A stretch of 64,000 bases of DNA. Origin: Octopus vulgaris (lineage: Eukaryota). The notes below the pieces were generated by a model. It searched no databases. It worked only from the letters and a program-made list of their open reading frames with translations, and was not told where the DNA came from. The DNA lies in contig OX597814.1 in assembly GCA_951406725.2 (NCBI GenBank), positions 51,770,001 through 51,834,000 on the forward strand, written 5' to 3'. Both the position numbers and the translations under genes were made by a program. Shown in pieces: positions 24,962-60,653 of the stretch (position 1 is the first letter of the stretch; each line of letters opens with the position of its first letter).

Positions 24962-25060
24962 GATGGTGCAACAGCTCTGGCGGAAGCCATTGCACACAAA
25001 CGTTTTGATGTGGTCAAATGTTTGATCACTAATGGGGCCGATATTTCTATCAGAGATGAT
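24962..25060 (+). CDS. Ankyrin-pseudokinase gene exon: ankyrin repeat 1 (DGATALAEAIAHKRFDVVKCLITNGADISIRDD)
   Basis: tttaaacag| acceptor and |gtaaga donor; 99 nt, phase 0-0, matches the ankyrin consensus. Confidence 0.93.
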
Positions 25061-25299
25061 GTAAGAATGACATTTTGTTAAATAATTATTCAGGATTTTC
25101 TAAGCACAAAGACTTCTTTATTTACAAACACATGCACACACATAATAACGTTTTTTATATAAATCACATTAAGGCTATATTTTTGTTAGAATGTTGAATA
25201 ATCAGACAATTGATCTCCTTTATAATAAATACACAGTTGTTGCTTAGATTTCGACAGTCAAGTGATGATTTTCATGGATATCAGCATGCACTATCATAT

Positions 25300-25680
25300 T
25301 GTCATATATTGATGTGAAACTTTGTTCAGATTTGGCATCAGCCTTGGCGGATCTTCTTCCCAATTTGTTAGCACAAGACATTGCACATGGCTGAAACTAT
25401 TCCTACCATATTCCTGAAGCAGCACTAAAGTTTCCATAAAGGTTTTTCCCAATTTGTGACAAAATTTCACACAGTCACACTGCTCTTCCATATCCTTTGC
25501 TCAATTTGCAGCAAATCGCCAAATGCACTTGATATGTTCACTGTAGTACCTATTAATTGATGACTAATTTGGCATGATATGGTAATTATTTGACTGAAAG
25601 TCAAGGTTACTCATACACAAAACTGAGATTAAGAGCTTTTATTGACTGCTACACTATTTCAGTTCGGCCAGTTTCTCGTT
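25300..25680 (-). pseudogene. Mariner 5' fragment (HTH N-terminus)
   Basis: MEEQCDCVKFCHKLGKTFMETLVLLQEYG resembles mariner N-termini. Confidence 0.65.
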
Positions 25681-25796
25681 AGACACAATATATTTATATT
25701 CATTGAAAGTAAAAACATGTAAATCAAATTCAAAGTAATACCTTAATTCTATAGTCACCATAGATACTTTTTTGGTTTGTGTGATGTAAAAATACC

Positions 25797-26957
25797 ATAT
25801 ATGCTGGCGTTGTAATACAACTTGGTGTACAAGGCAAATGCCAGGATTTCCATTTAGAAAGTAGGAATTGAGCTATACCTGCTATATAAGATTGACCCAA
25901 GTTATCGTGGAAAATAGTTTGGGTGCCAAAGGCATGAGGTTCATAGCTAAAAGGGTTTGTTTTTTTGTTTTACGAGACTATTGGTCTTGAAACAACATAT
26001 CCATTTTGACGCTGCTCACAGACCTGGTCTGTTACATGCTTCTCTGGAATCATGCCAGTGTGCAGTGCCTCCTCTCATTGCACATTCTGTCCTGGTTATA
26101 CTCCTTCATAAGTCTTCATTTAATCTCCAAATTCTTACCATCTTCCCGGTTACACTCTATTCTCTCGCAGCAGCTCAGTTGCTGTGGACTTGGTGTATGC
26201 TACCACTTTCAGCTTAAAACAGGTTCATATTGCCTTCGTTTATCACTTTGAGCCATGAGGGGGTTTTACAGTTGTTGGAAATTAATGTTCACTCAGTGAG
26301 AGTACTATGCTTATGAAAGAATGCCAACTTGATCCTTTCCAAGAAACCCTGTCTGTAAATGTTTGAAAGTAACCAGTAACTGTAAGGTTTATTGTGATTG
26401 GTCTGACTGACATGAACCAGCCAGTTACAGAAGGTATCAGTACATGCTGCTAATATAACAAGCAGGTTAGTTACTGTAAACTACACTTGTACTGAAAGCC
26501 CTAATCTGGCTGAATGCTGTATAAGAGAGCGCTCAAATGAGGCAGTGTAAACAGAACAGACCAAGGGACCAGGCTGAATAGGCTGATTGTTTACATTTTC
26601 TATTCGTCAGCTGTTGCAAGTGGCAACTGGTGTCTGTCTGCTAAGTTTGCTGTGCTGTTATTTTGATATAATTAACCTAATTTCTCAAACATACATGTAA
26701 GTATTAGTAGAACCACATGATCTATGCAAGTGGTTTACGGAGTTCTCCATCAATACATGCAAGTATTTGTTGAAAATACTGCGCTGTAGAACCATAGGAT
26801 CTATGCGAGTGGTTTACACTGTTCTCCATTGATATTGGTGTTACTCTAAGCCACAGGAAGTTAAGGTTTAGAATTTATACGGGGTATATAAGACAACCCT
26901 TAGTTTTGGGGTGATTGTTTTTTTGAAGATCAAATTCCATCCTGTACCCCGGTATAT
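25797..26957 (+). mobile_element. Internally deleted copy of the Tigger/pogo-like element
   Basis: Reverse-complement match to 12261-14345. It lacks the nested MITE and ends cctgtaccccggtata. Confidence 0.7.
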
Positions 26958-27291: not shown

Positions 27292-27399
27292 TATGGAAAA
27301 ACAGCCCTTATGAAAGCTATAATGGTTAAAGACTCGAATATTTTTCATATCATCTGGCAACATAGAAATGACAGCATAAGTTTACTTGAAACAGACCTT
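27292..27399 (+). CDS. Exon: ankyrin repeat 2 (YGKTALMKAIMVKDSNIFHIIWQHRNDSISLLETDL)
   Basis: tcccttcgcag| ... |gtgaga; 108 nt, phase 0-0. Confidence 0.9.
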
Positions 27400-27782: not shown

Positions 27783-27881
27783 CAAGGCAAAACACTTCTT
27801 CATTTAGCAGTTGAAGTACAGTGGGAGAAATGTGTCTTGTTATTGATCAATAATGGTGCTTCAGTGAACTCATGTGACAAT
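27783..27881 (+). CDS. Exon: ankyrin repeat 3 (QGKTLLHLAVEVQWEKCVLLLINNGASVNSCDN)
   Basis: ctttcag| ... |gtaagt; 99 nt, phase 0-0. Confidence 0.95.
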
Positions 27882-28759: not shown

Positions 28760-28858
28760 GAAGGAAAGATACCTCTAATGTTGGCTGCTTCACAAGGACA
28801 TAACAGAATTGTTGAACAACTTATTCTTGCTGGAAGTAATATATTGACTGCAGATAAG
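28760..28858 (+). CDS. Exon: ankyrin repeat 4 (EGKIPLMLAASQGHNRIVEQLILAGSNILTADK)
   Basis: ttgttgaag| ... |gtatga; 99 nt, phase 0-0. Confidence 0.95.
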
Positions 28859-29598: not shown

Positions 29599-29703
29599 TA
29601 TGAAGAGACATCCATCTGTCATGCCTACCAGTCATTAATGTGGTGTACAGCTCAGCAAATGCTTAATAGACTCACAGCTAATGAGTGTAGACAGTATGTG
29701 AAG
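29599..29703 (+). CDS. Exon: degenerate ankyrin repeat 5 or cap (YEETSICHAYQSLMWCTAQQMLNRLTANECRQYVK)
   Basis: ctactttcag| ... AAG|gtaact; 105 nt, open, phase 0-0. Confidence 0.8.
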
Positions 29704-31945: not shown

Positions 31946-32275
31946 AGTCTGCTGGAGAAAATTCGTTCTCCAAAGGAGTGCACTGAAGCTGAAAAAATTG
32001 AATATTATGGTTGGATTCTTCTGTGTTTGATGGCAACTGCTCAACTAGTTGAGAAAGATGCATACATTATGAAAGTTTATTACAAACTAAAAGTGATAGC
32101 TAATGTGCTCAGCAGCCTGCAAATGTTCATCAATAAATGTGAAACAGTGACTTTTATCAGCCTCTTATGTGTCAACTGTTGTCTTACCTTTAATTTTGTG
32201 TCTTGTCAACTAGAAATTACCTACCGTTTTGTTCTGCAATTTCTCCATGCTGGTGGGCCAGAATTCTTTCTTAAG
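31946..32275 (+). CDS. Exon: Cys-rich helical region, part 1 (SLLEKIRSPK...FLHAGGPEFFLK)
   Basis: poly-T cag| ... AAG|gtaata; 330 nt, open, phase 0-0. Confidence 0.88.
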
Positions 32276-34413: not shown

Positions 34414-34644
34414 GCAGCTACTTTTCACCAAAAAGATGGAAATAAAAATTACTTTTGTTCAACAGCATGTCTCCTTCCAATATTATTTTTGTCTGAAGTA
34501 AATTCAGGAAAGGAGTGGCTTAGAAATAATGTCATGAGATTGCTTCCATTAGTGCAAAGTTTCCAAGATTGTTGTCTGGAAAACTGCTTTTTGATGTTCA
34601 CTATAAAATTGTCTGGTAAAGGATCTCAGTCAATCCATAAAAAG
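34414..34644 (+). CDS. Exon: helical region, part 2 (AATFHQK...SQSIHKK), with a predicted GC donor
   Basis: cttttatcag| ... AAG|gcaagt; 231 nt. The phase-0 GC donor keeps frame with exon 38643. Confidence 0.8.
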
Positions 34645-35305: not shown

Positions 35306-36331
35306 CAGGGTCTTGCAGATAAATTGAGACAATTTTTATGATGCATACAACTAGTTATAAATACTAAAATAATGGTAGTAGACAAATATAATTCTGATAT
35401 AACATTTATTACAACTAAAACGCTTATCACTCAATATGGCCACCCTTTTGGGCAATTACTGCCTCCACATGAGAAAGAAATGTTTTGCAGCTGCTGCAAC
35501 CTCTGCCTTTTTCATTTTGTATGTTGCACATATGATGCAGGTCTTCAAACACTCGAGTGTGGTGTAGCATTGGTCCTTGCTTGAATTATATCCCATAAAA
35601 AGTAATTGAGATGGTTGAAATCTTGGCTATTACTGGGCCCTCACAAAAAATGGCATCTTCTCAGCAAGGAAGGCTTGTGTTCCTTTTGACCTCAGGTATG
35701 GTGCAGAATCCTAGATAAGCACCACATTTTCAGGCCCAAACTTCTGCTCCATCCAAGGTATCAGAGAGTTCTTCAGGATGTCCAGAATGAAGTGTGAATC
35801 CATGACACTTCCATCACTCGCCACGGCTCCAAATACCATCACAGAAGCAGGATTCTTAGTCTCAAACACAGTGGAGACATCAGAAGGGTATGCAATCACT
35901 CGAGAATTTCTGTGATTCATCTCAGCATCCAGAGTGAACTTCTCGTCCACAAACACGAGAGTTTTTCCTGCACCATGATGCTTGATGAATGATAGAAGCT
36001 TTGGGCATCTCTCAGCTCTGATTGCTTTGACCTTGGCTGTTAAGAGGCAATGGCGTTGTTGAATGTTTATACAGACAATAAATTGTTGTTTTTGGAAGTT
36101 TCATCAACTTAGCAATTTTATTGGCAGTGTGCCTGGTGTGCACTAAAACAATAAGGGCGGAATGATTCTGTTGTTCCATGACTTTCTGTTGTCGAATCAG
36201 TTCACTATTTACCTGAAAAAACAAAGAGGAGGATTAGATTTTTAAGCAAGCAAGGATTTATCAAAAAATAAAATGTTAAACCCACTAAGTCAACTGCTTA
36301 AAATTGGTCTCAATTTATCTGCAAGATCTTG
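35306..36331 (-). mobile_element. Tc1/mariner-superfamily element, maT (DD37D)-like, degenerate
   Basis: TIRs cagggtcttgcagataaattgagac and gtctcaatttatctgcaagatcttg, with TA on the left. Motifs FVDEKFTL..N.RNSR, SVMVFGAVASDG, *DSAP and PSNSQDFNHLNY. Confidence 0.8.
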
Positions 36332-38387: not shown

Positions 38388-38642
38388 AGAATTTACTTTG
38401 TTTTTTTATATTTGTTTGGTCAGTGAAGTAAGCACCAGCAATATATTGATTTGATAACATTGTATATCTGTTTTCCTTCCTGCAAAAGTTTGTTTTGTGC
38501 TTTTATCAAAACAAGCTATTATAAAAATGACCGTTATCTAGAAATTAGATGCTTTTTAAGTCTTTCTACATTGGTATATTTCCTTTCACACTTTATAGAT
38601 AAAATCCAATTGATTTTGAAATTCTTGTGAATTTTTTCTTAG

Positions 38643-39605
38643 ATCTGGACACATTTTATAGAATACTTCAATACAATAGCATATGAAAAACAACAAGAGA
38701 CTATTGCACAGCTGTTGGGTGATGAAATACGGTTGAACAAAAAGAAAGAAAAGAAATTGGTGAAGAAACAATTAAAGAGAAAACATCACCCACAACAATC
38801 TCAACAGGCATATGAAAATCCTCTCTCTGAGGCCAATAATGATGCTGTAACAAATAATACAAATAAAGGTTCTTCAGATTCTATTTTTAAAGCTGTAGAG
38901 CAAGAAGTGCATGACTCGAATTTAGGAAAGCTCAGAGTTGATAATACATCTGACCAGTCACTTTTGTCACCAACTGAATTGAGCAGAAAAGCATGCAAAA
39001 AAATGTTACTTATGAACTCAGTGTCTAAAAACTCACATGATGTATTTCCATCTCCAAATGGAAATAGTTTGGACACTATTTGTGAAAAATCAGTTGAAAG
39101 TAAAAAAACTGTCTCTGAAGATTTGCTTTCTAAATCTTACAATGAAGTGGAACACAATACAAATGTAAATAGAGATTGCTATTCAATAGATGAAGATTTA
39201 GGTGCACAGTGGACAACAGTGGTTGCCAAGAAATCTACTTGTAAATATGAAAATCGAACCAAACATGGAATGAAAACAGAAGTAAAAATTCCTGAAAAAA
39301 TAGATAATAATTCCAGAAAATCTTCAAGTTATCCAATTACAAAACATTATGTAAATGAAGGGGCAGTTAAAGTAGACAGTACTTTAGGGTCCAATTTTAG
39401 GACTCAGAATAATAAAACTGCTTTAAATGCTACTTCAGAAAATCGCAACATACCTGTGGAAAGTGATAAAATTACTCCAAGAAAAAATTTTCTTTGTCCT
39501 ACTTATTCTACAAATATACCCCAAGATTTAAATAAACAAAAAATTCAGGCAACACAAGTCCCTTCTTCTTCAGAATCTCCTGAAAAGTACAAAGCAAAAC
39601 CTGTG
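38643..39605 (+). CDS. Exon: coiled/basic segment and low-complexity linker (IWTHFIEYF...KYKAKPV)
   Basis: ttttcttag| ... GTG|gtatgt; 963 nt, open, phase 0-0. Confidence 0.88.
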
Positions 39606-40444
39606 GTATGTATAACATTTTGTGAATTATTTCCAAACATAGGATATGTTTTTAGTTATGACTTTATTGCTAACCTTTATGTTCTCTACAAAATGTCTTT
39701 TATGCGGTGTCCATTTTATTTATCTATTTATAAAATAAATTTAAGGAGAGGGAAGTACTGTCCATAACCTTTGCAGGCCCTCCTAACCACAAAAGCATAA
39801 TTAAAGAAAGGGTGTATGACAGAGGACAAAGAGCTGTGCCTATGACTGTTTGACCGTCTGCATGACTGATTAGAAAAAAAAGAAGAAAACATGACTTTGT
39901 GGATTCAGACTGGGAACTGTAACAAAAATGCTTGCAACAGCATGTATTGTGCTAATGGCACTTAGGAGTCAGGTGGTGTTAAACCAAGTGATGGATTTAG
40001 TCCACACCCATGAACAGATATAGTATCTGTTTTCTCAATTTCACTCACAAGATTTAAGGCTTGAGATGAACTGTGTAATTGCAAAGCAGATGTTTTAACC
40101 AGACAGCCTTGATTATGAATACAAGAAAAGTCATAAAAATATCTGCCATTTTTATCTGTGCTTTCATGTTATATTAAGAGGGAGAGCTAATGCTATTTCA
40201 CTTATATCATGAACTAAGACAGTGAGTAACAAATAGCCTAAACCTATTTAGTTAGGGAATGTTATACATAAACAAAATGCAAGAAAAGTCATGTCATAAT
40301 TAATTAATGTTTCTTAATAGCTTTATTATAAGCAGCTTCTAAACATTAATAAGGATGGCATTATATCAGAGAATAGATTAACTAAACTTCTTGCTAATTA
40401 ACAAAGTAAAAGAATCAGAGATATCTATTTCCATTTATTAATCA

Positions 40445-40775
40445 GGTGCATCGTTCAGTGGTTAGAGCATCAGGCTCACAGTCTTGCAGTAGTGAGTTCA
40501 ATTCCCAGATCAGGTTGTGTGTTGTGTTTTTGAGCAAGACACTTTATCTCACATTGCTCCAATTCACTCAGCTGTTGAAATGAGTTGTGATAGCATTAAT
40601 GCCAAGCTGTATTGGCCTTTGCCTTTCCCTTGCATATATATTGATGGAATGGAGAGGAGAGGCTGGTATACATGGGCACTGCTGGTCTTCCATAAACAAC
40701 CTTACTCAGACTTGTGCCTTGAAGGTTAACTTTCTAGGTGCATCCCTTGGTCATTCATGACTGAAGAGGGTCTTA
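40445..40775 (+). mobile_element. tRNA-derived SINE (distinct family)
   Basis: A-box agtggttagagc and B-box gagttcaattcc, followed by ttgagcaagacacttta. Confidence 0.7.
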
Positions 40776-41955: not shown

Positions 41956-42101
41956 TAAATTTCATTAGCTTTCATCATTACCTTTTGTCTTACAATGAAA
42001 ATATTTCCTGTTTTTATACAAAGGGGGATCTTTATGGCAAAAATAAGCTTATTTACATTATTTACATTCAACGGATATTTGTCCTCATCTTGTTTGTTGT
42101 T

Positions 42102-42692: not shown

Positions 42693-44593
42693 AGTGGAAG
42701 GAGAAATTCTATAAATTCTACGCCATCCCCTTATCCATACTTTTCTAAGAAAAACAAATCAAATTTGGTTACAAAACAGAACGTTAACTGTACATATAGC
42801 TCAGTTTTCGATTCTCAACATAAAACAGGAAAAATAAGCCTTGAAGAATTACTGATAGCTAAGATTGAATCGTATTGCAAAAGTGAGGATAATTTGGTCG
42901 ACAACAACTATGCATCACTTGAAACAAAACCAGAAACCTCAGTGGAAAATACTCATATTACTAATCCAAGTAAAGAATCTAATGTAGGTTTGCCATTTTT
43001 CATGCCTTCCATACATTTTGAATCAGAGAAAGACTGGAAACCAGCTAGAATTAATAAGAAATCTTTACAGACTGATGTCCAAAAAGATAGGCCAGAAGTA
43101 ATGAAAGTTGTAACTCCTAGACAAGTTTTACCAAATAAAACATTAAAAAAATCAGATGCTCTAGAAACACAAGTCTTTCTGGATAAAAAACATGCACAAG
43201 TCATTCATAATGCACCAGCTGTAGATAACAAGCCAGATGTAAATAGAACAGATGTAAATTTTAAACCAGATGTAAATACAACACCAGATGTAAATTTTGA
43301 ACCAAATGTAAATGTTACACCAGATATTATAACAACACTTGTAGATGTCAGACCAGTTGCTATAACAACACTTGTAGATGTTACACCAGTTGCTATAACA
43401 ACACTTGTAGATGTTACACCAGTTGCTATAACAACACATGTAGATGTTACACTAGATGCAGATACTAAACCAGATGTAGGTATTACACCAAATGTAGATG
43501 TACCAGATGATGATGATACAGCTGTTATAGATACTATATCAGATTTAGATGTGACAGAAGACTTAGATGATGCACCAGATTTAGATGTTACACAAGAGTT
43601 AGATAGTGCAGCAGAATTAGATGTTACGCCAGATGTTGAATCTATTTCAAATTACACAACCACACAAAATATACAAAGTATTCACATTTCAAGAAACCAT
43701 GAATTTGTAAATTCAGCAACAAAATCTCAAGATATCTCAACAAATAAAGAAAATTATTTACAAATGGAAGATGATGACCTTGATAACAAAGAATATTTTA
43801 AAATTAGACAGAAAAAAGAGGATTTTACAAACAATTCTCTTTCAAAAGAGTTGAAACTTGCAGAGAGGGCACAGTCAGTAAATTCACATTTCTTCCAAGA
43901 CCTTTTACTTCCAGTTCAACAAAAAGGTGATGAAAAGTATGAGCAAAAGAATGACAAAGTATCTAAAAGTATTGAAAAAAGTATGGAAAGGGCTTTTTCT
44001 TTTAAAACTCCTAAACAATACACAGAAAGTGATAAAGAAATTTGCCTGAAGAAAACAGAGACCAAACGATATCATATGGCTAGATTTAGTAAAGATCCAG
44101 TTTGCCTTAACCTCTCATCTGTTAGAAGCAGCCCAGCCTTCCGAGATATACAATTAACATGGATGCGTCAGTATCTACAACAGCTTTGTCAAAACTCTAT
44201 TACTAGAGACTTGGTCTATAATCACAATGCCTTTTACTACATGACATATTTCAGTCAGAAAGAAAAAGACAGCCTCATGTCTGATTTCCCGGAAATATTC
44301 TCTTCAAATGTATCCACAGGATATCACATCAGTTACCACTTAACAAAGACATCCATGAAAGAGGACAATAAAGATAACACTTTGAAGCAAAAATTAAACA
44401 TTCCAATGTTTTTAAAGCAACCAACAATATTCAGTGACATTAAGAAGTCTTTTATTCCATTTGAAAAGCACCAGAAGTCTGTACGTTGGCAAAAGCATCT
44501 GAACCATCTACTTCAGCTCTCCCCTAGAAACCTGTGTTATGTTGAAGATGTTATTTTACCACTGTATATCAGAAACTATAACATCAATGTAAG
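42693..44593 (+). CDS. Large exon: disordered linker with tandem repeats, then the pre-kinase segment (KSVRWQKHLNHLL...YNINV)
   Basis: attcttttatag| ... AG|gtaacc; 1901 nt, open, phase 0-2. Confidence 0.92.
43329..43452 (+). repeat. Coding 33-bp minisatellite (ITTLVDVTPVA, about 3.7 copies)
   Basis: Unit ataacaacacttgtagatgttacaccagttgct, set within wider PDVN/DLDVT repeats at 43220-43640. Confidence 0.95.
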
Positions 44594-45834
44594 GTAACCA
44601 ATGGACAATATTTTTGTGATACTTAAGTAATTTATTTAGGAGTCTACTATCTGTATGGCTGCATGTTTTTCTTAAACTATACAACTCTACTTGCCTCAAT
44701 CAACTCTACTGAAAATAGTTACCATTCCTGCTTCAAGATAATTATTAATGTGCCATTTCAGCATAGATTATAAACAAATGAATAAATGTATCGCAACGTC
44801 TCCATGTGCATTTATTCTTAGTGTCATTCTTGCCATGCTAATTTCATAGCAAGACTACATAGATATGGATAGATAACTAGCAGAAATATAATTTTGATGT
44901 ATAGTTCTTTGTACAAATTTTATTTTGTCCAATTAAGAGGGGCAGGACCCATAACTTTTGCGTAACATGCACAAGAAGGCTGTTGGAATTTATAAATGAC
45001 ATATCAATGTTAACTAGTTGAGTGATACATCATATATAAAAGATATATTATGAGAAATACTGAATTTATAGTCATTGAGATAGCACATTAACTATGTCTA
45101 AAACTAAAATATTATGTATCAGTCAGAAGCAATTTTAAGATAAAAGGCAAGTCATTAACTTTTTACTACAATGTTTCCTGATCTTTTATAGAAGTATTTA
45201 ACATGCAAACTATGCATATTATATGAAAGAAATTTCTGTGTTAAGTTTGTAAGTGTATATAAAGTTATAAATATGAGGCGTTTAATTAGATGGCATTTTA
45301 AAATTAATTTAGTCTGTGAAGGTGTGGTATTTATGACTTTTGCAGACTTTAATTAAACTAGTGAAGTCAGTGCAGTTGATGTTCTATTTGAACTTGAGAT
45401 TTGAAAAGAAATGGTAGGAAAGGAGAGGATTGCAGTTCTGAGGAGGAAAGATTAGATGAAGTAATTAGTGCTGAGATTTTGTGGACTAGACATAGGAGTG
45501 GTGGGTGCATCACAAATTGTAAAATTTGTGATGGTCTTCTTTATGTGCTATTTATGTGTAAGAAGATAGTCTTACTTCATGCATTTAGTTACTATATCTT
45601 AGGGTTGGCTTTTAATGCCTCCTAGTGTGCAGGGTTAGATATTTGAGTTTAATGCTACCCATGTCTGTATTCAAACTAAAAAGAAAAGATTCTGCTTTTC
45701 AAATAGGAAAGAATTATTAGTGAAAAAAAATTGTATTTAATGCTATTGAAAGTACCTAGTTCAGATGATTCACTTGAAAGTCTGAATTTTCAGATTTCCT
45801 CTGCTCATGCTAGCTTGTTAAAATGGAGGTCATC

Positions 45835-46020
45835 ATTGTCTTCATCACCATTTAACATCCGTTGTCCATGCTAGCATGGGTTCGATGGTGTGACCAGAGC
45901 TGGCAAGCTGGGGGATGCACCAGACTCCAGTCTGATTTGGCATGGTTTCTATGGTTGGATGCCCTTCCTAATGCCAACCACTTTACAGAATGTGCTGGAT
46001 GTTTTTACATGACATTGCAC
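45835..46020 (-). mobile_element. RTE 3' UTR fragment
   Basis: ccatgctagcatggg...ggatgcccttcctaatgccaaccac. Confidence 0.75.
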
Positions 46021-46290
46021 AAATGCTTACATATATATATATACATACACAGATATATTATTAAATCTATTTTTATTGTCAGTTTTTATTCTTAATTCTT
46101 GTTTTGTTATATTTTGTTTTTAGAGCTTTTGTTGTAATTAGTTGTTTGTTTACTGAGCAAATGATTTGCTAGAGTTATATATTTTTTCTTTTTGTTTTTG
46201 TCCAGTTTTCCCAATCTGATTCAAGTTGAACAGCATACATTTATATAGTATAATTTAATTAATTACTTTTTCATTTCTATATTACTTCAG

Positions 46291-46441
46291 GGGAAATCAT
46301 TTTGTTGTCGTGGGACTTCTCTCTGATGGAACTGAGCTAGCTGTCAAGCTTTATCGAGCAAATGAATGCCCTGTAGTGTGTGGTGCCCTCAGGAAACTTT
46401 CACAAGTAAGCCTGGATTCCAGGTTTGTGGTGAATTATAAA
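46291..46441 (+). CDS. Exon: kinase subdomains I-IV (GNHFVVVGLLSDGTELAVKLY...RFVVNYK)
   Basis: ttacttcag| ... |gtaaga; 151 nt, phase 2-0. Contains the AVK lysine motif. Confidence 0.92.
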
Positions 46442-47108
46442 GTAAGATTTTATTTCTAATAAGCTATTTTCCCTTCATTTTTCAGTTTATTTCACTGATC
46501 AAAGCAGCTTGTATTGTTACATAATTTGCAGAAAAACAGATGATCAGAAGCCTTCTTTTTTTGAACTTCAATCCTTAGAATTCTGTAACTCATTGGCAAG
46601 TCTAGGGTGACAATAATATGAAGTTAGTATGGTTCAAATTACATTGACAATCCACAGTCAATCTGCAGTCAGGTTAACCCTTACTTCTATTGAAATACAC
46701 TGTCTTTGTTTCTGTTAATTTTTAAAAAATGAAGAATTTAGTAAATTAATTTTGTCATTATTAAGCTAGTGTTAAGAACATAAATTAACATAAAATTTTG
46801 ATGGAAGATTTTAATTTAGGTCATTTCGAACCAGGATATTTGTATCGTAGAATAAGGGACAATGTCAGGTGGGTTGGTATCAAAAGTGTTAATCAACATC
46901 ATCATTGAACATCATCTTTCCATGCTGGCATAGGTTAGATGGTTTGATTGGAACTGGTAAGTTGGAGGGCTGCACTAGGTTCCAGTCTGATTTAGCAAGT
47001 GGACACCCTTCCTAATGCCAACCACTCTGAGAGTGTAATGGGTGCTTTTTATGTGCCATTTACATGACACTGGCAACAGCCGTTAGCAAATAATATTTCT
47101 AACATAGG

Positions 47109-47322
47109 AAGGTGGCAAGCTAGCAGAAACGTTAGCACACCGGGCGAAATGCTTAGCTGTGTTTCATCCGTCTTTACGTTCCAAGTTCAAATTACGCCGA
47201 GGTCGACTTTGCCTTTCATCCTTTTGGGGTCAATAAATTAAGTACCAGTTGCATACTGGGGTCAATCTAATCGACTGGCCCCCTCCCCAAAAATCTCGGG
47301 CCTCATGCCTAGAGTAGAAAAG
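47109..47322 (+). mobile_element. tRNA-derived SINE inserted at the end of an older antisense SINE
   Basis: TSD aat(a/g)tttctaacatagg. The downstream gcacaaggcctgaaatttt is the reverse complement of the SINE tail. Confidence 0.85.
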
Positions 47323-47988
47323 AATGTTTCTAACATAGGCACAAGGCCTGAAATTTTAGGAGGAGTTTACTTAGTACCCTTGACTTCAGTACTTAACTGG
47401 TACCTTATTTTATTGATCCTGTAAGAATGATAGTTAACTTCAGAGGAATTTTAACTCCCAAGTGCAGAGAAGTTGCAAGAAATAGTGCAAAACACTGAAT
47501 CTGATACTTTTACAACTCTGCCAATTGCAACCTGATTCCCCAAAACTCTATCACTCAAAGAAATAGGAAAGAACAAAAACAAAGGTATGAAACATTTTTT
47601 TAAAAAATCATACCAATTATTTGCAATCACAAATTCTTGTTTCTCTGCTGTCAGCTGATTTGAAGAAACATTTTTGGAGGACATTAGTGAATGATATAGA
47701 TAATAGGATGGTGGCTTATAGAATTGATAGTGCAGTAAACAAAATACTTGTGGTGTTTGGTCATGTTGCTTTATTTCAGAGTTCAGACCCCCATCCTAGT
47801 CTATTTTGCCTTTCAACCTTCTGATGTCAATAAAATCAGAAACAGCTTGCAACTACTGTGGTTGATATAACTGACTAAGACCTTGGAAGCAGTGATTCAG
47901 CATGGTTGTAGTAAAAAGTAAAAGATTATATGACAATGCCTTCTACTTTGACATATTTATAATTCATTGATGTTTATTCTAATTTCAG

Positions 47989-48177
47989 TCTGTGATGGTT
48001 GGCCAGAAATTCTTCCTGGCGACTATGAACCTGTGTGAATGCAACCTGAAAGAATACATTGATTGGAAAAAATTCTCCAATAGGTTTGATCTCAACACGG
48101 CCTCTTACCTCTTCTGGCACATGGTCAGCAGTCTGAAATATTTGCATGACAATAATATTGTACATGGTCGACTTGAG
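47989..48177 (+). CDS. Exon: kinase subdomains V-VIb (MNLCECNLKEYI...LKYLHDNNIVHGRLE)
   Basis: aatttcag| ... GAG|gtaatc; 189 nt, phase 0-0. Confidence 0.95.
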
Positions 48178-49767
48178 GTAATCACTATTGCAGAATTTTG
48201 GTCAAGTTCCCCCCCTCCTCTCCTCCTTTCTCCTCTTCCTCCTCATCATCATTGTTATTGCCATTATCAACAGCAGCATATCCAGCATCATCATTGTCAT
48301 CATCATCACAATCATCATCAATGAAGATGTTCAAAGTTTAAACAAGCTGATTTAGTATTCTGTGCACTGTTGTTCCTGATGTTAAACTTTGTTGGAGTAT
48401 GTTCAGTATAAAGTTTGTGACAATCTGTAATGTATCTGATTTATTTATGGAAAACCTAGAATCCTTCTTTAGTCAGTCAACATTTTCATTGACACTGTCC
48501 CCATCCTCTATTGATAATAATACTTTCAAATATATGATGAATGACTGTAATCATCCTTTCAATATTTCCAACAATACCTTAATAATCAGTTAGTGTGATA
48601 GTTAACTATTTCATCTTTGTTATGAGATATATTCATCAAATGGAGACCAATCATATCAGCTTTCAAATGTGAAGAAACAACATTTATAGTATTATCACCA
48701 GCTGATAATAGCAGGCTTCAGTAGACTTTACTATGCTGATGATGTCTAATATACCAAAGAATTTTCATAATTGTCTCTTGCTTGCAAAGACAGATCATAC
48801 CTTTATTCCTAAACATTAAAATTAACTTTGAGAAATCAATTTTTTTTTGTGCACGTATCTCCCCTTCTCTTTGGGAGTTGCTAACAATTACATCAGAGTT
48901 CTTTGTCTACCAGGGAAATTTCAATAAAGAATTTCTTCTTACATACAGTGTTCAGTAGATGACTTCTTATTTATAAGTAAGTGCCTGGTCTCTTTTGAGA
49001 GAATAGGGGAAATAACTAAATCTGAGATTTGACTTAAACCCAAAGATTTGAATTTTTTTGTCAAGAACCTTTTACCTAAATAAAATTATGAATGACTTTT
49101 ACTGTCATTATTCTGAAACTACTATTATCATCAATATTCTGGTTCAGGTTGCAGAAAGTAAAATCAGTCAGGTAAGTACCAGTCACATAATTGAAAGGTT
49201 GGTGGTTCATGTCCTATCGCTAATGCTACATTGTATCCATGCTAGAGATATTTAATTTTCAAATTATCCTAAATTATTTAACTGTAAAAGGATAAGACAA
49301 AACTCACTGCTGTAGGCAACAGTATGATAAACATTGACAAGTAATTTATTTACTTCCAATACTGAGTTGGATATAGTGACAGTGAAGTATGGTCTTTGAT
49401 AAATGGATTTGGACAATGTACTCTATATGTTATAATATCATCACAACCAGACTTAAAGACTTGGGATGGGGACTGGTAGAAATTAAGACACTAACTTGTA
49501 ACAGTATGAAGTGAAACTTGTAGGTAATATTTGAGTTGGAAGGATGTGTCAAAGGGGTTTAGTTCTGGGGAAATGGTTTTGAACATATTTTCAGGTTTGG
49601 AAAATGTATCAATAAAGTGTGAGGTGGGAGACAATGAATGACACAAGGAGGAGAAGTGTTTTTTTTTTCTTTTTCAGTTGATTTAAGTGAAACTAATGGA
49701 TAAGAATGTATGAAAATTGAATAGTTAAAATAAGTACCTTGCTTGAGACACTAGAACCCTCTATTTA

Positions 49768-51046
49768 TTAGGCTGTTCTGAAAATAATGGCTGATTTCAG
49801 AAGCATAATCTTATTCTAGAAAAATTAACTATAGAAATGTTTTGATTAGTCAAAGTATGAGCCGTGAACATCTATGCATCTCTGCCATCAATCAACGAGA
49901 TTATTTATGCATTGTTGATAAAAACTTACTGGCTTTGAAGCTAAGAAATTTTTGAAAGATTATTCCACCTCTGGTTTGGACCTGAAAGTTTTATCACTTA
50001 AAAATGTGTTTAAATGCTTTAAAAAACGGTAGTCAGTTGGTGAAAGATCAGGAGAATATGGAGGATGTGGTAAAGTCTCATATCCCAAGTCTGTGAGTTT
50101 CTGCAGTGTCATTCTTGCAACATGGGGCTTTGCTTTATCATGGAACAGAATTGGGCAACACAGATTCATCAATGCAGGTCTCATTTTTTGCAAGTGAGCA
50201 TGCATTTCAGTGAGTTGATTGCAGTAAACCTCTACTGTATTGCTCTAATTGGCTTCCAGAAAGCTGTAATGGACAACACCAATTGCAGACCATCAGACAG
50301 TCACCATAATCTTTTGCTGATGCAACTTTGGCTTCAGGAAATGTTTGTGAGGCTCATCATGATCAAGCCATTGATCTGACCATTTACGATTATCATAAAG
50401 GATCTACTTGTTGTCACAAGTGACTATTCAGTCAAGAAAAGGATCATTGTTGTTTCACAGAAAGAGCACCGAGAACACTTCAAAACGCTGAACTTTTTGA
50501 TTTTCCTTGAGCTCATGCATTACCCATTTATCATGCTTTTTCACCTTACCAATCTTCTGCAGATTGTGTGAGACCATTGCAATACTGGCACCAAGTGCCT
50601 GAAACATTTCTCTGACACTTTGATGTGGGTTTTGTTCAACAATTGCTTTCAATTGTTCATTGTCAAGACTGCATGACCATCCTCTACCTTCATCTTCAAG
50701 GCTTTCATCACCACTATGGAATTTCTGAAACCACCTTCATACTGTGATCAATTGTGGACCCCTCTCCCCATTCTTTGTTGATATTGGCAGCAGTTTGGGA
50801 GGCATTATGCCCAATCTTGAACTAATGCAAGAAAAGTAAGCAAAGGTCCTTTTTTGTCATGTTCATAATTAAGGACATCTATGCTTCGAGAATGTTTTCT
50901 GTTTGAAATAAGTAGAAAATTATTAAGGAGCATACATCAATTATTAAGTATGTCGAAATTCAACTAAAACATAATTAAAATACTATGATAAAATTGCGTT
51001 TGAAAACACAACACTTCAAGTGGCCATTATTTTTGGAACAACCTAA
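49768..51046 (-). mobile_element. Full-length (~1.28 kb) degenerate mariner (DD34D)
   Basis: TA-flanked TIRs ttaggctgttctgaaaataatgg and ccattatttttggaacaacctaa. Motifs KW.MHEL, HDKAKPH and HPPYSPDLSPTDY; ORF disrupted. Confidence 0.92.
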
Positions 51047-51300: not shown

Positions 51301-51412
51301 CCCAAAAATATTCTCATAACTGTATATGGGAAACTTCTTCTGAGCAATTATGGCTTTCATTCTTCATGGATTCATGGACCTGACTGTCAGAACTGTAATT
51401 TCTTCATGTCTG
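51301..51412 (+). CDS. Exon: kinase subdomains VIb-VII (PKNILITVYGKLLLSNYGFHSSW...)
   Basis: atttcag| ... G|gtatgt; 112 nt, phase 0-1. NYG sits at the DFG position. Confidence 0.92.
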
Positions 51413-51639: not shown

Positions 51640-54600
51640 ACCTAGGTGGCTTCTATGGTGTGCATGGAGGCTATGGAGTTGGTTCCTGCAATGAGGAAGA
51701 AACTAGACCTCTGGAGTTCTGTGATGCAAATGACCTAATGATCTGCAACACTAACTTCCAGAAACCAGCCTAGAATCTAGACACCTATCAATTTGGTGGG
51801 AGTACAAGCTACATTCTCACTACAAAATGGGAAAGTTGGTTACTTATAAATGCAAAGACCTTCCTTGGTGAAGAGTGCACTCCTCAGTATAAGTTAGTTG
51901 TTAGTGACTTAAGACTGCAGGCTAGAAGGATTCCAAGAAGCAAATTGGTCTTGAAAAGTATTGTTAGGAAGCTTAAGGACCCTCTGAATAGTCAGAGATT
52001 TAGAAATGTTCTAATTGAAGCATTTGACGAGAAGGAGGAGGAAAGAGTGATATATAGCATAGGGTACAATTGAAGTTCCTACAAGAAAACTTAATGAGGG
52101 CCACTGACCAAATTTGTAGATGGTGCAAAGTTACAACCGGACCTAGGGTGACATAGTAGTGGAGGTAGTAGACATGGCTATTAGAGTGAAGAAACAGGCC
52201 TGGAAGGACTGAAAGAGTGGTAGCAGCAGAAAACTATATCAGATAGCTAGAAGGAAAAAGAGAAGAAGGTTTATTGAGCTAAGGAAGAAATTTGTCAATA
52301 TTCTGCAGCATGAGGACCAGAGGCTTGTGGTGTTTTGGATTGCAAGACAGTGTGTCAGAGAAAATCATGATATTGTAGGAGTGAAGTGTGTTCGCATAGA
52401 TGAGTGTACACGTGCAGTTTGTGATTCTGCAAAGAGATTTTGAAGTGCTGCTATGGAAGGTTGCTAAATATGGAGAATGTGGACCCAACAGAGGGACCAG
52501 CTATCCAAATTGACAGTAGCTTGGTAGATAACGTAACTAAAGGCATGAAGACAGGGAAAGACCCCAGCCCACCAGGAATTGCCTCTGAAATGCTTAAAAT
52601 ATCTGGCAGAGTGGGATATAATCTAGTCATCCATATAGTGAATCAGGTCAATGAGGGAGTCATACCCAATGATTGGTGTAGCGGTATTATTGTCAACAAT
52701 AAGGCGGTGAGCTGGCAGAAACGTTAGCACGCCGGGCGAAATGCTTCGCGGTATTTTGTCTGCCGTTACATTGTGAGTTCAAATTCCGCCGAGGTCAACT
52801 TTGCCTTTCATCCTTTCGGGGTCGATAAATTAAGTACCAGTTACACACTGGGGTCGATGTAATCGACTTAATACCTATGTCTGTCCTTGTTTGTCCCCTC
52901 TATGTTTAGCCCCTTGTGGGTAATAAAGAAATAGGTATTATTGTCAACAGCTACAAAGGTAAAGGTGATGCCTTAGACAGAAATGATTACATAGGCATCA
53001 AATTGTTGGAGTAGGTGATGAAAGTTACACGGGCTCATAACTCAACTAATTTGGAAGAGAGTTAACCTAGATGAGATGTAGTTTGGTTTTGTGCCAGGAG
53101 AAGCACTACTGATGCTATTTTAGTAAGGCATTTAGCAAAAAGGTAAATCTCTGTACTTGGATTTTGTAGACATGGAGAAAGCCATTGATGATCCCCTGCT
53201 TCCTAATGTGGTGATCAATGCAGAAGCTAGAGATAGATGAGTGGTTGGTGAAAGCCATCCAAACCATGTGCAAGGATGCTGTCAGTAAGGTGAATGTCAG
53301 CAATGAGTATAACAGCGAATTTAATGCACAGGTAGGAGTTTATCAAGGAACAGTTCTCAGCCCCCTCTTGTTTATCATAGTCCATAACTGGAATCTAAGA
53401 CTGGTTGCTCTTGGGAGCTCCTTGTTCTTGTAGCTGAATCCCTACAAAAATTAGAAAAGAAACTTCATGTGTGGAAGCAACATTTGGAATCAAAGGGTCT
53501 TAGAGTAAATTTAAAGTTCCAGTATGTGGGAAAGTAGACCAAAGTCCCAGTATGTAGGAATGTAATCAATTACTAATCCCTTCACTGAAATGGCTCAGCT
53601 CAGTATGTAGAAAAGGTGTAGGTAGAAATTCCATATGGTGTACCCAGGACAAGCTATGGACACATAAGAGGTGCAGGAAAGTTAACAGAGAAAGTAGTCT
53701 TTGTGTGTGGCAGGAATGTAAATGCAATAAACACTAAAAATGTGCAGGACAAAGACTTTGTCAAATGTGTGTGTAGATACTTAGAAGTAGTATGTAGCTT
53801 CTGTTACCTAAACAACAATGTTAGCAGTGGATGAGGATGCTCTGAACACATAATTGCTAGAATAAGAATAGGATGAGCGAAATTCAGAGATCTACTACCT
53901 TCATTAGTAACAAAGGGCCTCTCCCTCAGTGAAAGGAAGATTGTATGATACCTGTGTCTGGACAGCTATGCTACATGGCATTGAAACATGGGCTGTGACT
54001 GCAGAGGACATGCAAAAACTTGAAAGAAATGAAGCCAGCATGCTCTGCTGGATGTGCAATGTATGAGAGAGTGTTAGTGTTCTAAGAGGAAAATTGAGTG
54101 TATGAGGCATCAGATGTAGTATGCAAGAGAGAAGACTGTGCTGGTATAGCCATGTGATGCATATGGACATGGACAGTTGCATAAGGAAGTGCTGATCTCT
54201 AATTGTAGTGGGAACCTGTGGGTAAGGTAGCCCTAAGAAGATGTGGGGCAAAGTGGTGAGAAACAGTCTTTGGATGTTGAACTTTACAGAGGAGATGACA
54301 AGGGGCTGAAACTTCTGGCAATTCGCTGTGCTTTAGAAGATAAGGTCTTATGAAACATCCTCTCTGTGCCATATATACTCCCAACCATTGCTACCCAAGG
54401 GTAGCAATACCTCTCCAATACCATTTATTTCTCTCTTTCTCTCTCACCCTGACTGTCTAGCTTTCTCTCTAACTCTGTCTCTTCTGCCTCCTCTCTTTTC
54501 CTACTGGGGTAGCTAAGAATTTCCTCTACAGTAAGGAGCTCATCTCTATCTCTCTGTTGTAATCTAACCTGCCACTTAGCAGAAAGCTACTTTCTGCAGT

Positions 54601-56022: not shown

Positions 56023-56487
56023 TGTGCAGTAATATTTTCCTATTGAGTAGATTTAGATTTTTAAATCTTTTTATGGTACATTTCTTTTTCATTTACTTAA
56101 GGTAATCTCATGCTTTTCTAATGTTGTTGTATCATAATAGTATTGACTGGCACTTACATCTATAATCCAACCCACCATCTGTTTACATGCTATAAAATAA
56201 ATCACTGACAGGATCTGTTCGATGTTACCATCTGTGCGTTCATGTATTTGCTCACCAATGCACCATCACTCACCTTTCTTTAGAGATGGCTTTATGCATG
56301 GTTGAAAGTTCAGTCAACCTTTTTCTCTTTGGTATTGAAAATGTATTGCAAATTCTTTTTATGCTAACCAAACTTGCTGCAAGAGAATATGAATGTCTCA
56401 ATATTAAATTGGTTGATGAGAAATTAATGTACATTAAGATGACTCTAATTTCACATCCTCTTGATATATAAAAAAGAAAAAATTTTA

Positions 56488-57563
56488 TATGCTCCGCTGG
56501 ATGTGTAATGTCAGTGTGCATACACGACAGAGTGTAAGTGCCCTGAGAGAAAAGTTGGATTTAAGGAGCATCAGATGTGGTGTGCAAGAGAGACGATTGC
56601 GCTGGTATGGTCATGTGTTGCGAATAAATGAGGACAGCTGTGTGGAAAAGTGTCACACCCTGGCAGTTGAAGGAACCTGTGGAGGAGGTAGATCCAGGAA
56701 AACCTGGGATGAGGTGGTGAAGCACGACCTTCAAACATTGGGCCTTACCTAGGCAATGACTAGTGACTGGGACCTTTGGAGATATGCTGTGCTTGAGAAG
56801 ACCGACAAGCCAAGTGAGACCATAGCCCGTGGCCTATGCTAGTGGATGTAACCTGCCCATTTATGAATACCCCTCATTCATTGGACAATAAACCTTGCTT
56901 GTGAAGACCTATTGAGGCAAGTGAAATCAAAATTGCTAATGTGGCCGACGACAGTACTGCCTGATTGGCACTCATGTCAGTTGAATGTTAAAAGCACATC
57001 TGAACATGGGGTGTAACTGGCCCTCTTATGAGTACTCCTCATTCACTGGACAATGAACTTTGCTTGCAAAGACCTATTGAGGCAAGTGTAAACAAACCAA
57101 AATCACTGATGTGGCCAATGACAGTTCCGCCTGATTGGTGCTTGTGCCAGTAGAACGTTAAAAGCACATCCGAGTGTGATCATTGGCAGGGCCATGGATT
57201 GGCTCCTGTGCCGGTGACATATGAAAAGCACCATTCGAGCATGATCATTGCCAATGGCACGTGAAAAACAACATTCGATCATGGTGGTTGCCAGTGCCGC
57301 CAGACTGGCTCCTGTGCAGGTAGCACATAAAAACAGCTTTAGAGTGTGGTCATTGCCAGAACCGCTTGACTGACCCTTGTGCCAGTGGAACATAAAAGCA
57401 CCCACTACACTCTCGGAGTGGTTGGCGTTAGGAAGGGCATCCAGCTGTAGAAACTTTGCCAGACCAGATTGTTTCTGGTGTAGCCTCTGGCTCACCAGTC
57501 CTCAGTCAAATCGTCTAACCCATGCCAGCATGGAAAGCGGACGTTAAACGATGATGATGATGA
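56488..57563 (+). mobile_element. 5'-truncated RTE LINE (~1.07 kb)
   Basis: MLRWMCNV...QERRLRWYGHV...RKTWDEVVKHDL, followed by 3' UTR and (GAT)n tail. Confidence 0.9.
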
Positions 57564-58938
57564 TATCAACAAGTATATTTCACAATTTCAACAGATAGAA
57601 CCTCCTAGAGCTGATAATTATATTACAATAGACAGTGTATAAGTTTGACTCTAGAAAGTAGCAAATCTAGAAAAAGTATAATCTTTTTCCCTCTGCATGT
57701 GGCAGTAGAAGAAAAAATCCTTTGCTTTTTTCTCTTAGCCACATTCTGTAGTTCTTCATTTAAAAATATTAGGATATAAGTCTTGTTTTATTGGTCAACT
57801 TGCTATTTTGTTTACTAAAAGTGTTCAACTCTATGGGAGCTTGTGTTATATTGTATTTGTAAGTTTGTACAGTGAATATATTTAGGAATACTTAATAAAC
57901 ACTTTTTAAGAGTTTAACCTAAAACTTACAGTATACCACCACCTATTTTAGAGTTAATTTTCTATACTTTCTCATAGAAAGCCATCAAGAATCTGATTGG
58001 TATTAACAAAAACTTTACCACTCTCCCGCATGCAAATATAATAAAAAACATGTTATCAATATAATTGGGTGACTATCTAGCATATTCACAACTGGGCTCA
58101 CTTTCAACAAAGCTGCCCACTATTACAATAATGAACCAGAAAAAAGTGGATTTAAAGAAAGATTTAATTGCATATTGAGGCAAAAGAAACAGTACAAAAA
58201 CTGTAGGAGTAGTATCATCTGGTTTAACCCATCTTTTTGCATGAATGTAGTAATTAATGTAGATAGAAACTTACTAGTGTTAATCAGAGAGCACTTCCCA
58301 GCTAACCACAAGTACCACATGCTGTTTAACAAGAACAATATCAAAGTTAGTTAAAGCTGTTCAAGGAACTCCATTAGTATTATAATGAACAATCTCTAAA
58401 AGACTAACTAAAATGGAACATCAGAAACTGGATCTCAGAGTTTCAGAGTTAGGCCATATTGCTCACTAAACAGCAACTGCTTAAACAAAACTTGTACATA
58501 AAGTGATGGTAATATCTTATAGATGGCATAAAACTGGAGAAATGTTATATTATGTGCAAAGGTAGCTTCAAGAGCTATTTCCTCAACCACATGTCTAGTG
58601 CACTACAGGGAACAGAGAAAAGGCATATCAAAGCTTTCTTAGAGCATGTTTGAAAACCGGTGGACTTGTGTGTGGAGCACTTTTGTATAAAATAGTCAAC
58701 ACATCATACCATACATAAACAGAGCAAAGAAATGTCAACTAACTTAGAAGCATTGAGAAATACTATATCTTAATTCAGCAATCTGCTTTAGTAAAGGAAT
58801 TAATTACTGAGTGCTTTGTGGGTATCATTCAAGATGTTTGATACCTCTCACTGAAAAGGTCTTCATTTTCTAATATGATGAAAATCGACCTGTTGGTTAT
58901 ATTACAATTTATAGCTTGCATTGTATTGTCTATTCAAG

Positions 58939-59018
58939 ATAGTCAGAAATGCTGGCAACCATCAGAATTTCTTCGATCATGTGATGGCCAAAAGTTTTCA
59001 ATAAAATCTGATATACAG
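58939..59018 (+). CDS. Exon: kinase subdomains VIII-IX (DSQKCWQPSEFL...KSDIQ)
   Basis: ctattcaag| ... CAG|gtgagt; 80 nt, phase 1-0. Confidence 0.9.
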
Positions 59019-60459
59019 GTGAGTAACAACCCAATATAATGGCTTTCATAGTAATTCTCTTTCCTTAGTAAACCATATTGCTTATGAAAATATATCACAA
59101 AGTTTTAATTAGATAAGGAAAATAAGTCTTTGGGAGTTATATTAATGATCATTGATTTTGATTAGGTATTAGAAATTTGACGAAGGGAAATAGGATATCC
59201 TGATGTTTATGGCTTTTACAGATTTCAATTATTATAAGATTTCATATTTTTCCTTGCTTAACATGAGTTATCAGCTAATTATCAATCAGGCAGAAATAAT
59301 TGGTGAATTTATGTTTCCATATTGATTTATTAACAAAGCATATGACATAATACTTTTCATATATCCTTTCATTGAACTCAGTAGATAACTGGTGATCCTC
59401 TACACAGTCACTTTATCTGTTAGAAACAGCAGATAAATTTCCTTCAAACCACACCTTACTGTCTTAGAAACAGGAGAAATTAGACAATGATACTTATACT
59501 GATACTTATAAAAAAAAGAGATCAGCTGGTCACAACTGGAATGCATTTGATTGTAGATTTGCTTAACCAAATCTAACTTGGAAATGAACAATAACAGCTA
59601 GACTTCTGTTTATCTTTGGTTTCTGTTGCTCACATTAAGTAGATGAGATAAATCTTCCAGTGTATAGATGTCAGCCTATTGCAAGCAACTTTTTCTTGAA
59701 CAATGCACTGGAATGACCAGCTCAAAAATGTTCCTGCTGTGACCATGACCATCTTACTTTTTTTTTTTTTTTTTTTTGCATATCTAGGACAACATTATTC
59801 CCTGTGTCTTTATCTTTTTGAGTGGAGTTAATCTATTATCTGGTTTAATGCCACTCCTTGGTGCCTTTAAAAGAGTTTAATCTGTTGCAATAATTTAAAC
59901 CAGATCTCTAGTTGGAGGCTAACTTCTTTCCTTCTTCTTATCAGTTTTAGAAGACCTGAAAACAAAAATGATCATGGCTGCTGCTTTTCCCTAAGTGGTA
60001 AAAAATAGTGAAGATTTGGCTTAAACTATTTATCCGTTCCTTTGTTGTCTTAAATTTTGTGTAAATCCCCTTGTTTGCTCAGATTGCATAGAGCCCTATC
60101 ATGTTTGAATATGCTTAATCCAATGAGTGTGTGTTTTAATCTTTTAAAAATGTGTACATCTTTAGAAACTCTGAGATAGTTTAGTGCAAAAATTCTGCAT
60201 AACTCCTTCAGAAAGAGCCAAGTATCCAGCTTCTGAAGCTATATCAATTATTTGTGAACTTACTAAATTAAAATGTTGACTTCCATCTTGTCTATTAGAC
60301 ATTAATATTACACTAAATAATTGATTAATGTATCTCAGACATGTACACAAGCATCCAATATATACACACAGATGCACTTATACAAAATCACACAGAAACA
60401 CAAACATGCACAAACAATAAAATTTATCCAAGAATTACAACTGTTATTTTGTTCTGTAG

Positions 60460-60653
60460 GTTGCTGGTATGGTTGCTTATTTCATACTGAGTGGAGGCCA
60501 TCACCCATTTGGTAAATCTTCTTCAGAAATACCACTCAATATCATTTTGCATGAAAAGCAGTTATGCAACCTAAGTTTGGAAGCAAGTGACATTATAACA
60601 ATGATGTTATCAGCAATTCCTGATGAAAGGCCAACTGCAAGTGAAGTATTAAA
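60460..60653 (+). CDS. Exon: kinase subdomains IX-XI (VAGMVAYFILSGGHHPFG...PDERPTASEVL); gene continues beyond
   Basis: ttctgtag| ... AA|gtgcgt; 194 nt, phase 0-2. Carries the IRE1/RNase L family GxHPFG signature. Confidence 0.93.

Follow-up and report, generated by a model that had tools for sequence, protein, structure and literature searches.

An octopus ankyrin, pseudokinase and KEN protein that appears to have lost both catalytic sites and carries a motif resembling the ribosomal pin of ZAK

We analysed a stretch of 64,000 nucleotides from Octopus vulgaris (GenBank assembly GCA_951406725.2, contig OX597814.1, forward-strand positions 51,770,001 to 51,834,000; hereafter the window), which is occupied by most of one gene. 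Its product combines ankyrin repeats (ANK), an armadillo-like helical domain (ARM), an IRE1-type kinase fold and a KEN domain, and both of its enzyme sites appear to be lost. Our preferred reading, to which we assign a probability of about 0.5, is that it is likely a non-catalytic scaffold in the cytosol, held on the 40S ribosomal subunit by a motif like the eS27 pin of the kinase ZAK. A first-pass annotation, made from the sequence alone, had correctly recognised a cephalopod and proposed an RNase L-type nuclease; it did not cover the family at large, the armadillo-like domain or the ribosome-type motifs described below.

Domain layout of the octopus protein

Mapping orthologous RefSeq models on the window and its flanks gave a gene of 20 exons (69-74720 in extended coordinates, which continue past the window end), with a joined frame of 1,803 amino acids (aa) and no internal stop. 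The 14 exons first proposed, with consistent phases and about 1,550 aa, exist as exons 3-16 (24962-60653, ~1,553 aa); two more lie upstream (69-314 and 15145-15234) and four past the window end.

69..314, + strand: exon 1, aa 1-82, basic N-terminus, no signal peptide seen; 98.8% in tblastn of the O. sinensis ortholog; GT donor
15145..15234, + strand: exon 2, aa 83-112, degenerate first ankyrin repeat
24962..25060, + strand: exon 3, aa 113-145, ankyrin repeat
27292..27399, + strand: exon 4, aa 146-181, ankyrin repeat
27783..27881, + strand: exon 5, aa 182-214, ankyrin repeat
28760..28858, + strand: exon 6, aa 215-247, ankyrin repeat
29599..29703, + strand: exon 7, aa 248-282, capping ankyrin-like repeat and start of the helical domain
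31946..32275, + strand: exon 8, aa 283-392, armadillo-like helical domain (AlphaFold2 and structure matches)
34414..34644, + strand: exon 9, aa 393-469, armadillo-like domain; GC donor
38643..39605, + strand: exon 10, aa 470-790, end of the helical domain, Lys-rich helix, start of the low-complexity linker
39210..39233, + strand: eS27-pin-like motif in exon 10, W659-x-x-V-x-x-K665-K666 with basic patch
42693..44593, + strand: exon 11, aa 791-1423, linker with 18- and 33-base-pair repeats, conserved block at ~aa 1270-1320, RW motif (aa 1388), kinase start
46291..46441, + strand: exon 12, kinase N-lobe; beta-3 Lys1443 retained, alphaC Glu lost
47989..48177, + strand: exon 13, hinge and catalytic loop; HRD replaced by HGR (aa 1533-1535)
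51301..51412, + strand: exon 14, DFG replaced by NYG (Asn1553)
58939..59018, + strand: exon 15, kinase C-lobe
60460..60653, + strand: exon 16, kinase C-lobe with GGHHPFG
60654..64000, + strand: intron 16, extending past the window end
64922-65005 (extended), + strand: exon 17, KEN, begins HPYFW; beyond the window
65997-66072 (extended), + strand: exon 18, KEN; beyond the window
67284-67399 (extended), + strand: exon 19, KEN; IRE1 Y892/R905/N906/H910 replaced by I1737/Y1749/N1750/L1754; beyond the window
74582-74720 (extended), + strand: exon 20, KEN end and stop codon; beyond the window

Pfam recognised ankyrins, a kinase and Ribonuc_2-5A (32.8 bits, cut-off 23.3) in the O. bimaculoides ortholog. 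The KEN exons anticipated downstream of position 64000 are present, and the phase-2 exon expected to begin (K/N)HP.FW is exon 17, reading K-HPYFW; the IRE1/RNase L-family motifs quoted in the annotation are also there. Three Octopus annotations, and proteins of many other species, place ankyrins and kinase in a single chain, as the annotation supposed, and we rejected the idea of separate ankyrin and kinase genes.

The protein has four full ankyrin repeats, one per exon, with degenerate repeats on their flanks. About 1,100 residues, comprising the armadillo-like domain and a low-complexity linker, separate them from the kinase. Residues ~266-500 had no Pfam match, Pfam Arm included, and were predicted to form a helical solenoid (AlphaFold2 mean pLDDT 90.1, pTM 0.87, from 42 rows). 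Its best structural matches were mostly of armadillo type, although such scores are common for helical repeats and are therefore generic: 9cpc was the top one (Z 14.0, root-mean-square deviation 4.3, 176 aligned residues), with beta-catenin 9i8o (Z 13.2, 3.2, 162) and Armc8 8a1i (Z 13.2, 3.5, 167). The solenoid is followed by a Lys-rich helix and then by the linker, of ~890 aa. The signal peptide, luminal domain and transmembrane helix that are hallmarks of IRE1 were not found in the octopus protein. Since the highest 19-residue hydropathy, 1.82, falls inside the predicted solenoid, no transmembrane helix is indicated; a membrane protein was rejected on this ground, and the soluble protein first envisaged stands.

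Loss of catalytic residues

Alignment with yeast and human IRE1 chains showed that the octopus kinase retains the beta-3 Lys but has lost the alphaC Glu, with HGR in place of HRD and NYG in place of DFG. In the KEN domain, Y892, R905, N906 and H910 of human IRE1 correspond to Ile, Tyr, Asn and Leu. The stretch that holds the HEPN Rx4-6H motif reads Y-N-T-C-I-L in octopus and Y-N-[CS]-C-[LQ]-H in 19/19 other molluscs with letters there, and neither octopus row of the alignment has a His at or adjoining the catalytic position. The RNase of Ire1 uses His as general base and Tyr as general acid, and changing the His to Asn cuts the rate of the yeast enzyme more than 300,000-fold (PMC9472280); the R and H of Rx4-6H are needed in KEN (PMC3710099). 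Judging by mutagenesis of IRE1, it is a strong inference that these losses abolish catalysis, and we take the octopus protein to be inactive both as a kinase and as an RNase.

These replacements bear directly on the nuclease effector first proposed, an RNase L-type enzyme that would sense 2-5A or a cyclic dinucleotide via its ankyrins. The layout behind that proposal holds in so far as ankyrins, an IRE1-family pseudokinase and KEN share one soluble chain, in an order that is constant in molluscs and chelicerates. However, there are four full repeats rather than nine, ~1,100 residues away from the kinase, so that the composite 2-5A pocket of RNase L, formed by ANK R2/R4 of one chain with ANK R9 and the kinase N-lobe of the other (PMC5927464), cannot be assumed. 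Octopus has other residues in place of the KEN Tyr and His (general acid and base) and of the HEPN Arg. In bit score against a profile of the family, RNase L chains (114-119) fall below IRE1 chains (173-184), which is a measure of similarity and not of phylogeny. Chu et al. (2023) place RNase L in jawed vertebrates, with none in ray-finned fish, and report that OASb did not activate RNase L in yeast (PMC10400998); two further papers report RNase L to be absent from Aplysia, oyster and limpet (PMC9334734, PMC6307210). A search of the octopus's own genome for OAS1_C (PF10421) gave no match, but the same tool missed the KEN exons known to be present, so this blank is uninformative; equally uninformative was a search with a fungal IRE1-like protein, which did not find octopus IRE1. 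For octopus, an RNase L-type nuclease is largely refuted and barely credible.

Could a remodelled site, made of Tyr1749, Asn1750 and their neighbours, still cut RNA? The Arg-to-Tyr change is fixed in 21/21 mollusc rows with letters at that column, the Asn and the equivalent of R890 are kept, and KEN is the most conserved part of the protein among molluscs. We nevertheless regard this as very unlikely, given that octopus has no His at or beside the catalytic position and that this residue is essential in Ire1.

Nor does the gene look like a relic losing function in cephalopods. Such decay would fit the long octopus branch (1.42 changes per column) and the absence from octopus of two KEN residues and of two linker motifs still present in other molluscs. 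Against it stand the intact 1,803-aa frame, open in three Octopus species, its canonical splice sites and spliced contigs. Between O. vulgaris and O. bimaculoides, 0/230 positions differ in the helical domain and 6/418 in kinase plus KEN, as compared with 35/789 in the linker (Fisher p 0.0002 and 0.007, respectively). By these sequence comparisons the gene is under constraint and is not decaying, and we consider a relic highly improbable.

Ribosome-type motifs in the linker

The linker, otherwise unalignable, holds three short motifs in fixed order, which we tallied in 21 mollusc rows (20 named and one unnamed that groups with them). The pattern W-x-x-V-x-x-[KR]-[KR] occurs with exact spacing in 20/21, where shuffles predict 0.11. 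An aromatic-A-[DEN]-x-hydrophobic motif was found in 16/21 (3.44 expected) and FPx[LF] in 20/21 (2.85 expected), the former lying upstream of the latter in all 15 rows that have both. FPxL follows the W-x-x-V motif within 200 residues in molluscs other than octopus, which is the only one to lack it.

All three resemble motifs of 40S binders. W768-T-K-V771 of ZAK binds eS27, its R774/K775/K776 are predicted rRNA contacts needed for polysome binding, and its FPxL binds RACK1 (PMC12823453); a RACK1-binding helix has the pattern S-aromatic-A-x-hydrophobic (preprint 10.64898/2026.08.26.747346). W659 and K665-K666 of the octopus protein match the sequence spacing of ZAK W768/V771/R774/K775. Octopus thus has the pin sequence and the basic patch at +6/+7 of a ZAK-type 40S binder, and has neither the RACK1-type FPxL nor the helix. 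With moderate confidence, we propose that its W-x-x-V motif binds eS27 and 18S rRNA as in ZAK.

Separately, three near-identical eS27 exon copies are clustered on C18 at 45.85-45.93 Mb, and two apparent eS27 retrocopies lie on C3 (115.07 Mb) and C6 (14.6 Mb).

Several observations weigh against the tethered scaffold. FPxL and any RACK1-helix-like motif are absent from octopus, so that its tether rests on one 8-residue motif. The strict S-aromatic-A-x-hydrophobic form is present in only 5/21 mollusc rows (1.68 expected), and the pin in 0/9 chelicerate rows, 8/9 of which have the loose helix motif. Since the patterns were defined with the alignment already in view, and on related sequences, the comparison with shuffles makes the motifs look more significant than they are. 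KEN by itself, with 3/128 positions changed between the two octopuses, is not significantly more constrained than the linker (p 0.34). Finally, a W-x-x-V preceded by acidic residues presumably also fits an autophagy LIR motif.

This last point leads to a scaffold with no ribosome link, in which W-x-x-V binds something else, for instance ATG8 as a LIR, or the dead kinase-KEN unit pairs with IRE1. Two dead enzyme sites, the loss of both RACK1-type motifs, the acidic residues before W659 and the 173-184 bits that the family profile gives to IRE1 chains would all suit it. It accounts poorly for the basic pair at W+6/W+7, which recurs in 20/21 molluscs and matches the rRNA patch of ZAK, and for the nearby downstream FPxL in the other molluscs; we judge it somewhat unlikely.

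Under the ribosome-tethered reading that we prefer, the pin motif would dock the octopus scaffold on the 40S subunit through candidate contacts with eS27 and 18S rRNA. More weakly, the ankyrin and armadillo repeats may bind protein partners, while the pseudokinase-KEN unit may dimerise or bind RNA without cutting it. In the ancestral mollusc protein we would expect three 40S anchors (pin, RACK1 helix and RACK1 FPxL) together with a Tyr/Asn/His KEN site; of the anchors, octopus retains only the pin.

A bolder extension concerns molluscs at large. Both IRE1 and RNase L cleave RNA in the dimeric state, and ZAK forms dimers on collided ribosomes. For this reason we also considered, as a third kind of IRE1/RNase L-family effector, a collision-activated, soluble pseudokinase-KEN RNase, tied to the 40S subunit by pin, RACK1 helix and FPxL and dimerised by colliding or stalled ribosomes instead of by 2-5A or stress of the endoplasmic reticulum. 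It would use the variant Tyr/Asn/His site and be active in bivalves and gastropods, with dead derivatives in octopus and arachnids; we hold this to be unlikely. If the anchors are real, the family ties ribosome-collision surveillance directly to the nuclease fold of IRE1 and RNase L, and the oyster, mussel and scallop proteins become testable. No report of ribosome collision as a trigger for this fold appeared in our literature listing.

An unnamed family in molluscs and chelicerates

By sequence, the octopus gene is one of an unnamed family with the domain order ANK-ARM-pseudokinase-KEN, found in molluscs and chelicerates. A spider protein matched both the N-terminal module and the kinase of the octopus protein, and a helical-domain profile built from the two (E up to 0.001) recovered 29 representatives. 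Pfam analysis of 26 of them found kinase and KEN in seven (six also with ankyrins), ankyrins and kinase in four, ankyrins only in two and no family in 13, many of them fragments. A kinase-KEN profile of seven members retrieved 30 long proteins among 7,996 candidates scored, four of which are unnamed proteins outside the family with intact catalytic sites. Members occur in bivalves (Solemya, Pecten, Mizuhopecten, Argopecten, Ylistrum, Mytilus, Ostrea, Saccostrea, Sinanodonta), gastropods (Patella, Lottia, Haliotis, Gigantopelta, Littorina, Batillaria, Pomacea) and chelicerates (spiders, a scorpion and ticks), and nearly all are labelled uncharacterized or hypothetical. Our literature searches, judged by their listings, found no description of the family or its motifs.

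Among 29 aligned rows of the family the Arg of HRD is Gly in 28 and Glu in one, and the catalytic Asp is retained in a single row. The KEN site differs by lineage. Equivalents of R890, Y892, N906 and H910 are kept, with R905 replaced by Tyr, in 19/19 non-cephalopod mollusc rows, that is, those with letters in KEN out of 20 (the Pomacea model has none), and in chelicerates the site is degenerate and hard to align.

In a quick tree octopus grouped with the other molluscs (SH-aLRT 99) on its long branch; the tree held no RNase L or animal IRE1 row, and the incomplete models of Pomacea, Batillaria and Dermacentor were omitted. Since three helical-domain proteins (P0041-P0043) fell outside the named groups in another, weakly resolved tree, the family may be wider.

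Gene model, splicing and neighbouring sequence

Of the 19 introns, 18 are GT-AG and one is GC-AG. The protein is 99.5% identical to O. sinensis XP_036357000 (LOC118762493, three isoforms) and 97.4% to O. bimaculoides XP_014775694 (LOC106873009, six isoforms). O. vulgaris CAI9715102.1, a 100% match across the searched region, is annotated 'IRE2' and omits several exons, two KEN exons among them. That name is misleading because the protein has no luminal domain or membrane helix and has lost HRD, DFG, the alphaC Glu and the R, H and Y of the RNase.

Confirmation of the splice model by reads was partial. Contigs from three of four runs, aligned to 38550-48200, connect exon 11 with exon 12 and exon 12 with exon 13 across GT..AG introns; two runs (X15, X16) come from one study and X2 from another, and the runs are not recorded as RNA. 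The fourth (X1) gave no spliced contig among the rows listed. The X2 contig also joins exon 10 to 11, and so connects linker exons to kinase exons; it is probably from a related octopus, being only ~97% alike. It runs 470 letters beyond exon 13, equal to the summed length of exons 14-17 by arithmetic and not by alignment. An intronless DNA copy is an unlikely source of these contigs, because a search of the octopus's own genome found none. Whereas the contigs cover exons 10-13, linkage of exons 1-9 and 14-20 comes from RefSeq models and from orthologs that share the domain order.

The O. sinensis isoform XP_036357003 stops just past exon 17, with most of KEN missing, and the length of one contig fits the same end point, hinting at a KEN-less isoform. 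A second intact genome copy was rejected, as the search gave one broken partial copy only: near 133.94 Mb of OX597814.1 (C1), minus strand, ~2.4 kb of exon 11 and flanking intron recur at 92-97% identity, with stops, a frameshift and the repeat region deleted.

Within exon 11, 43225-43634 consists of coding 18- and 33-base-pair tandem repeats that encode acidic Val/Thr/Pro units; three contigs are 18 bases longer at 43572, a difference shared by the other two Octopus proteins. At ~44100-44300 (aa 1270-1320) lies a small linker block of molluscs, FP-x-FHD, a helix and HDF-x-YYAS-x-x-G, which is degenerate in octopus. Intron 1 contains a 377-base-pair unit, tandemly duplicated at 97% identity (11608-12360). 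From their translations, we take other intron fragments to resemble LINE reverse transcriptases (62570-64000 on the minus strand, 52000-54200 and 56465-56750), Tc1/mariner transposases (24226-24468, 35714-36100 and, on the minus strand, 49963-50736) and a Helitron-type helicase (21531-21818, minus strand).

Comparison with known systems

ZAK-alpha, a ribosome collision kinase, SERBP1, LARP4 and RNF10 are 40S binders that use the eS27 pin, RIH and FPxL. The octopus protein shares with ZAK the W-x-x-V and basic pair at the same spacing, and its bivalve and gastropod orthologs also share FPxL and an aromatic-Ala helix-like motif. It differs in its dead kinase, in having only the pin and in showing no SAM domain; the likeness is one of short motifs, and we claim no homology beyond them.

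Some teleost proteins (Acanthopagrus P0011; Atlas clusters such as LOC115376849) resemble it in their ankyrins, helical region, Lys-rich stretch, RW motif and kinase-KEN unit, and the RW motif bears out the likeness to fish proteins noted in the first-pass annotation. Chordate ANK-kinase clusters were the top Atlas look-alikes of the scallop ortholog (0.98). Unlike octopus, the teleost proteins have intact HRD and DFG, an intact RN..H in one of two copies and none of the three linker motifs, and HHalign with a single-sequence template detected no homology of their helical region to the octopus helical domain (probability <1%). P0011 has two kinase-KEN units, the second with intact RN..H, and is uncharacterized, in teleosts said to lack RNase L. 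Five ENA proteins (P0012, P0077-P0080) of ~1,300 aa have ankyrins near the kinase, KEN, and intact HRD, DFG and RN..H; homology of their N-terminal regions to the octopus helical domain was not detected, and by sequence they are better RNase L-like candidates than the octopus gene. ANKAR, with Pfam Arm repeats and ankyrins and no kinase, was an Atlas lead at 0.89, below the 0.9 mark; the octopus fold is armadillo-like, but its matches are generic.

Chu et al. (2023) describe several RNase homologs outside RNase L that bear ankyrins, likely gained independently; the text as available does not mention a mollusc or chelicerate family, catalytic loss or ribosome motifs, and Figure 2 or the supplement may include these proteins (PMC10400998). 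The family provides an old protostome ANK-kinase-KEN lineage against which one can test the idea that RNase L acquired its ankyrins shortly before the jawed vertebrates. For octopus, the analysis puts right the 'IRE2' label and takes away a false lead towards an OAS-RNase L pathway in invertebrates.

Like the octopus protein, RNase L (PDB 4OAU/4O1O) is a soluble chain of ankyrins, a catalytically dead kinase fold and KEN. RNase L is found in polysome fractions (PMC11672174). Its nine repeats adjoin the kinase and its KEN is active, whereas in octopus an armadillo-like domain and a linker of 890 residues come between four full repeats and the kinase, and KEN has lost the catalytic Tyr, Arg and His. 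IRE1 (PDB 3FBV, 5HGI and others) is the best solved full-length match of the kinase-KEN unit (E 4e-30 with the octopus sequence, 3e-53 with the family profile), from which octopus differs in the residues and membrane parts already described. The octopus protein, in which an IRE1-type kinase fold is directly followed by KEN as in the IRE1/RNase L superfamily, is neither RNase L by its defining features nor IRE1, and is a variant within the kinase-KEN superfamily.

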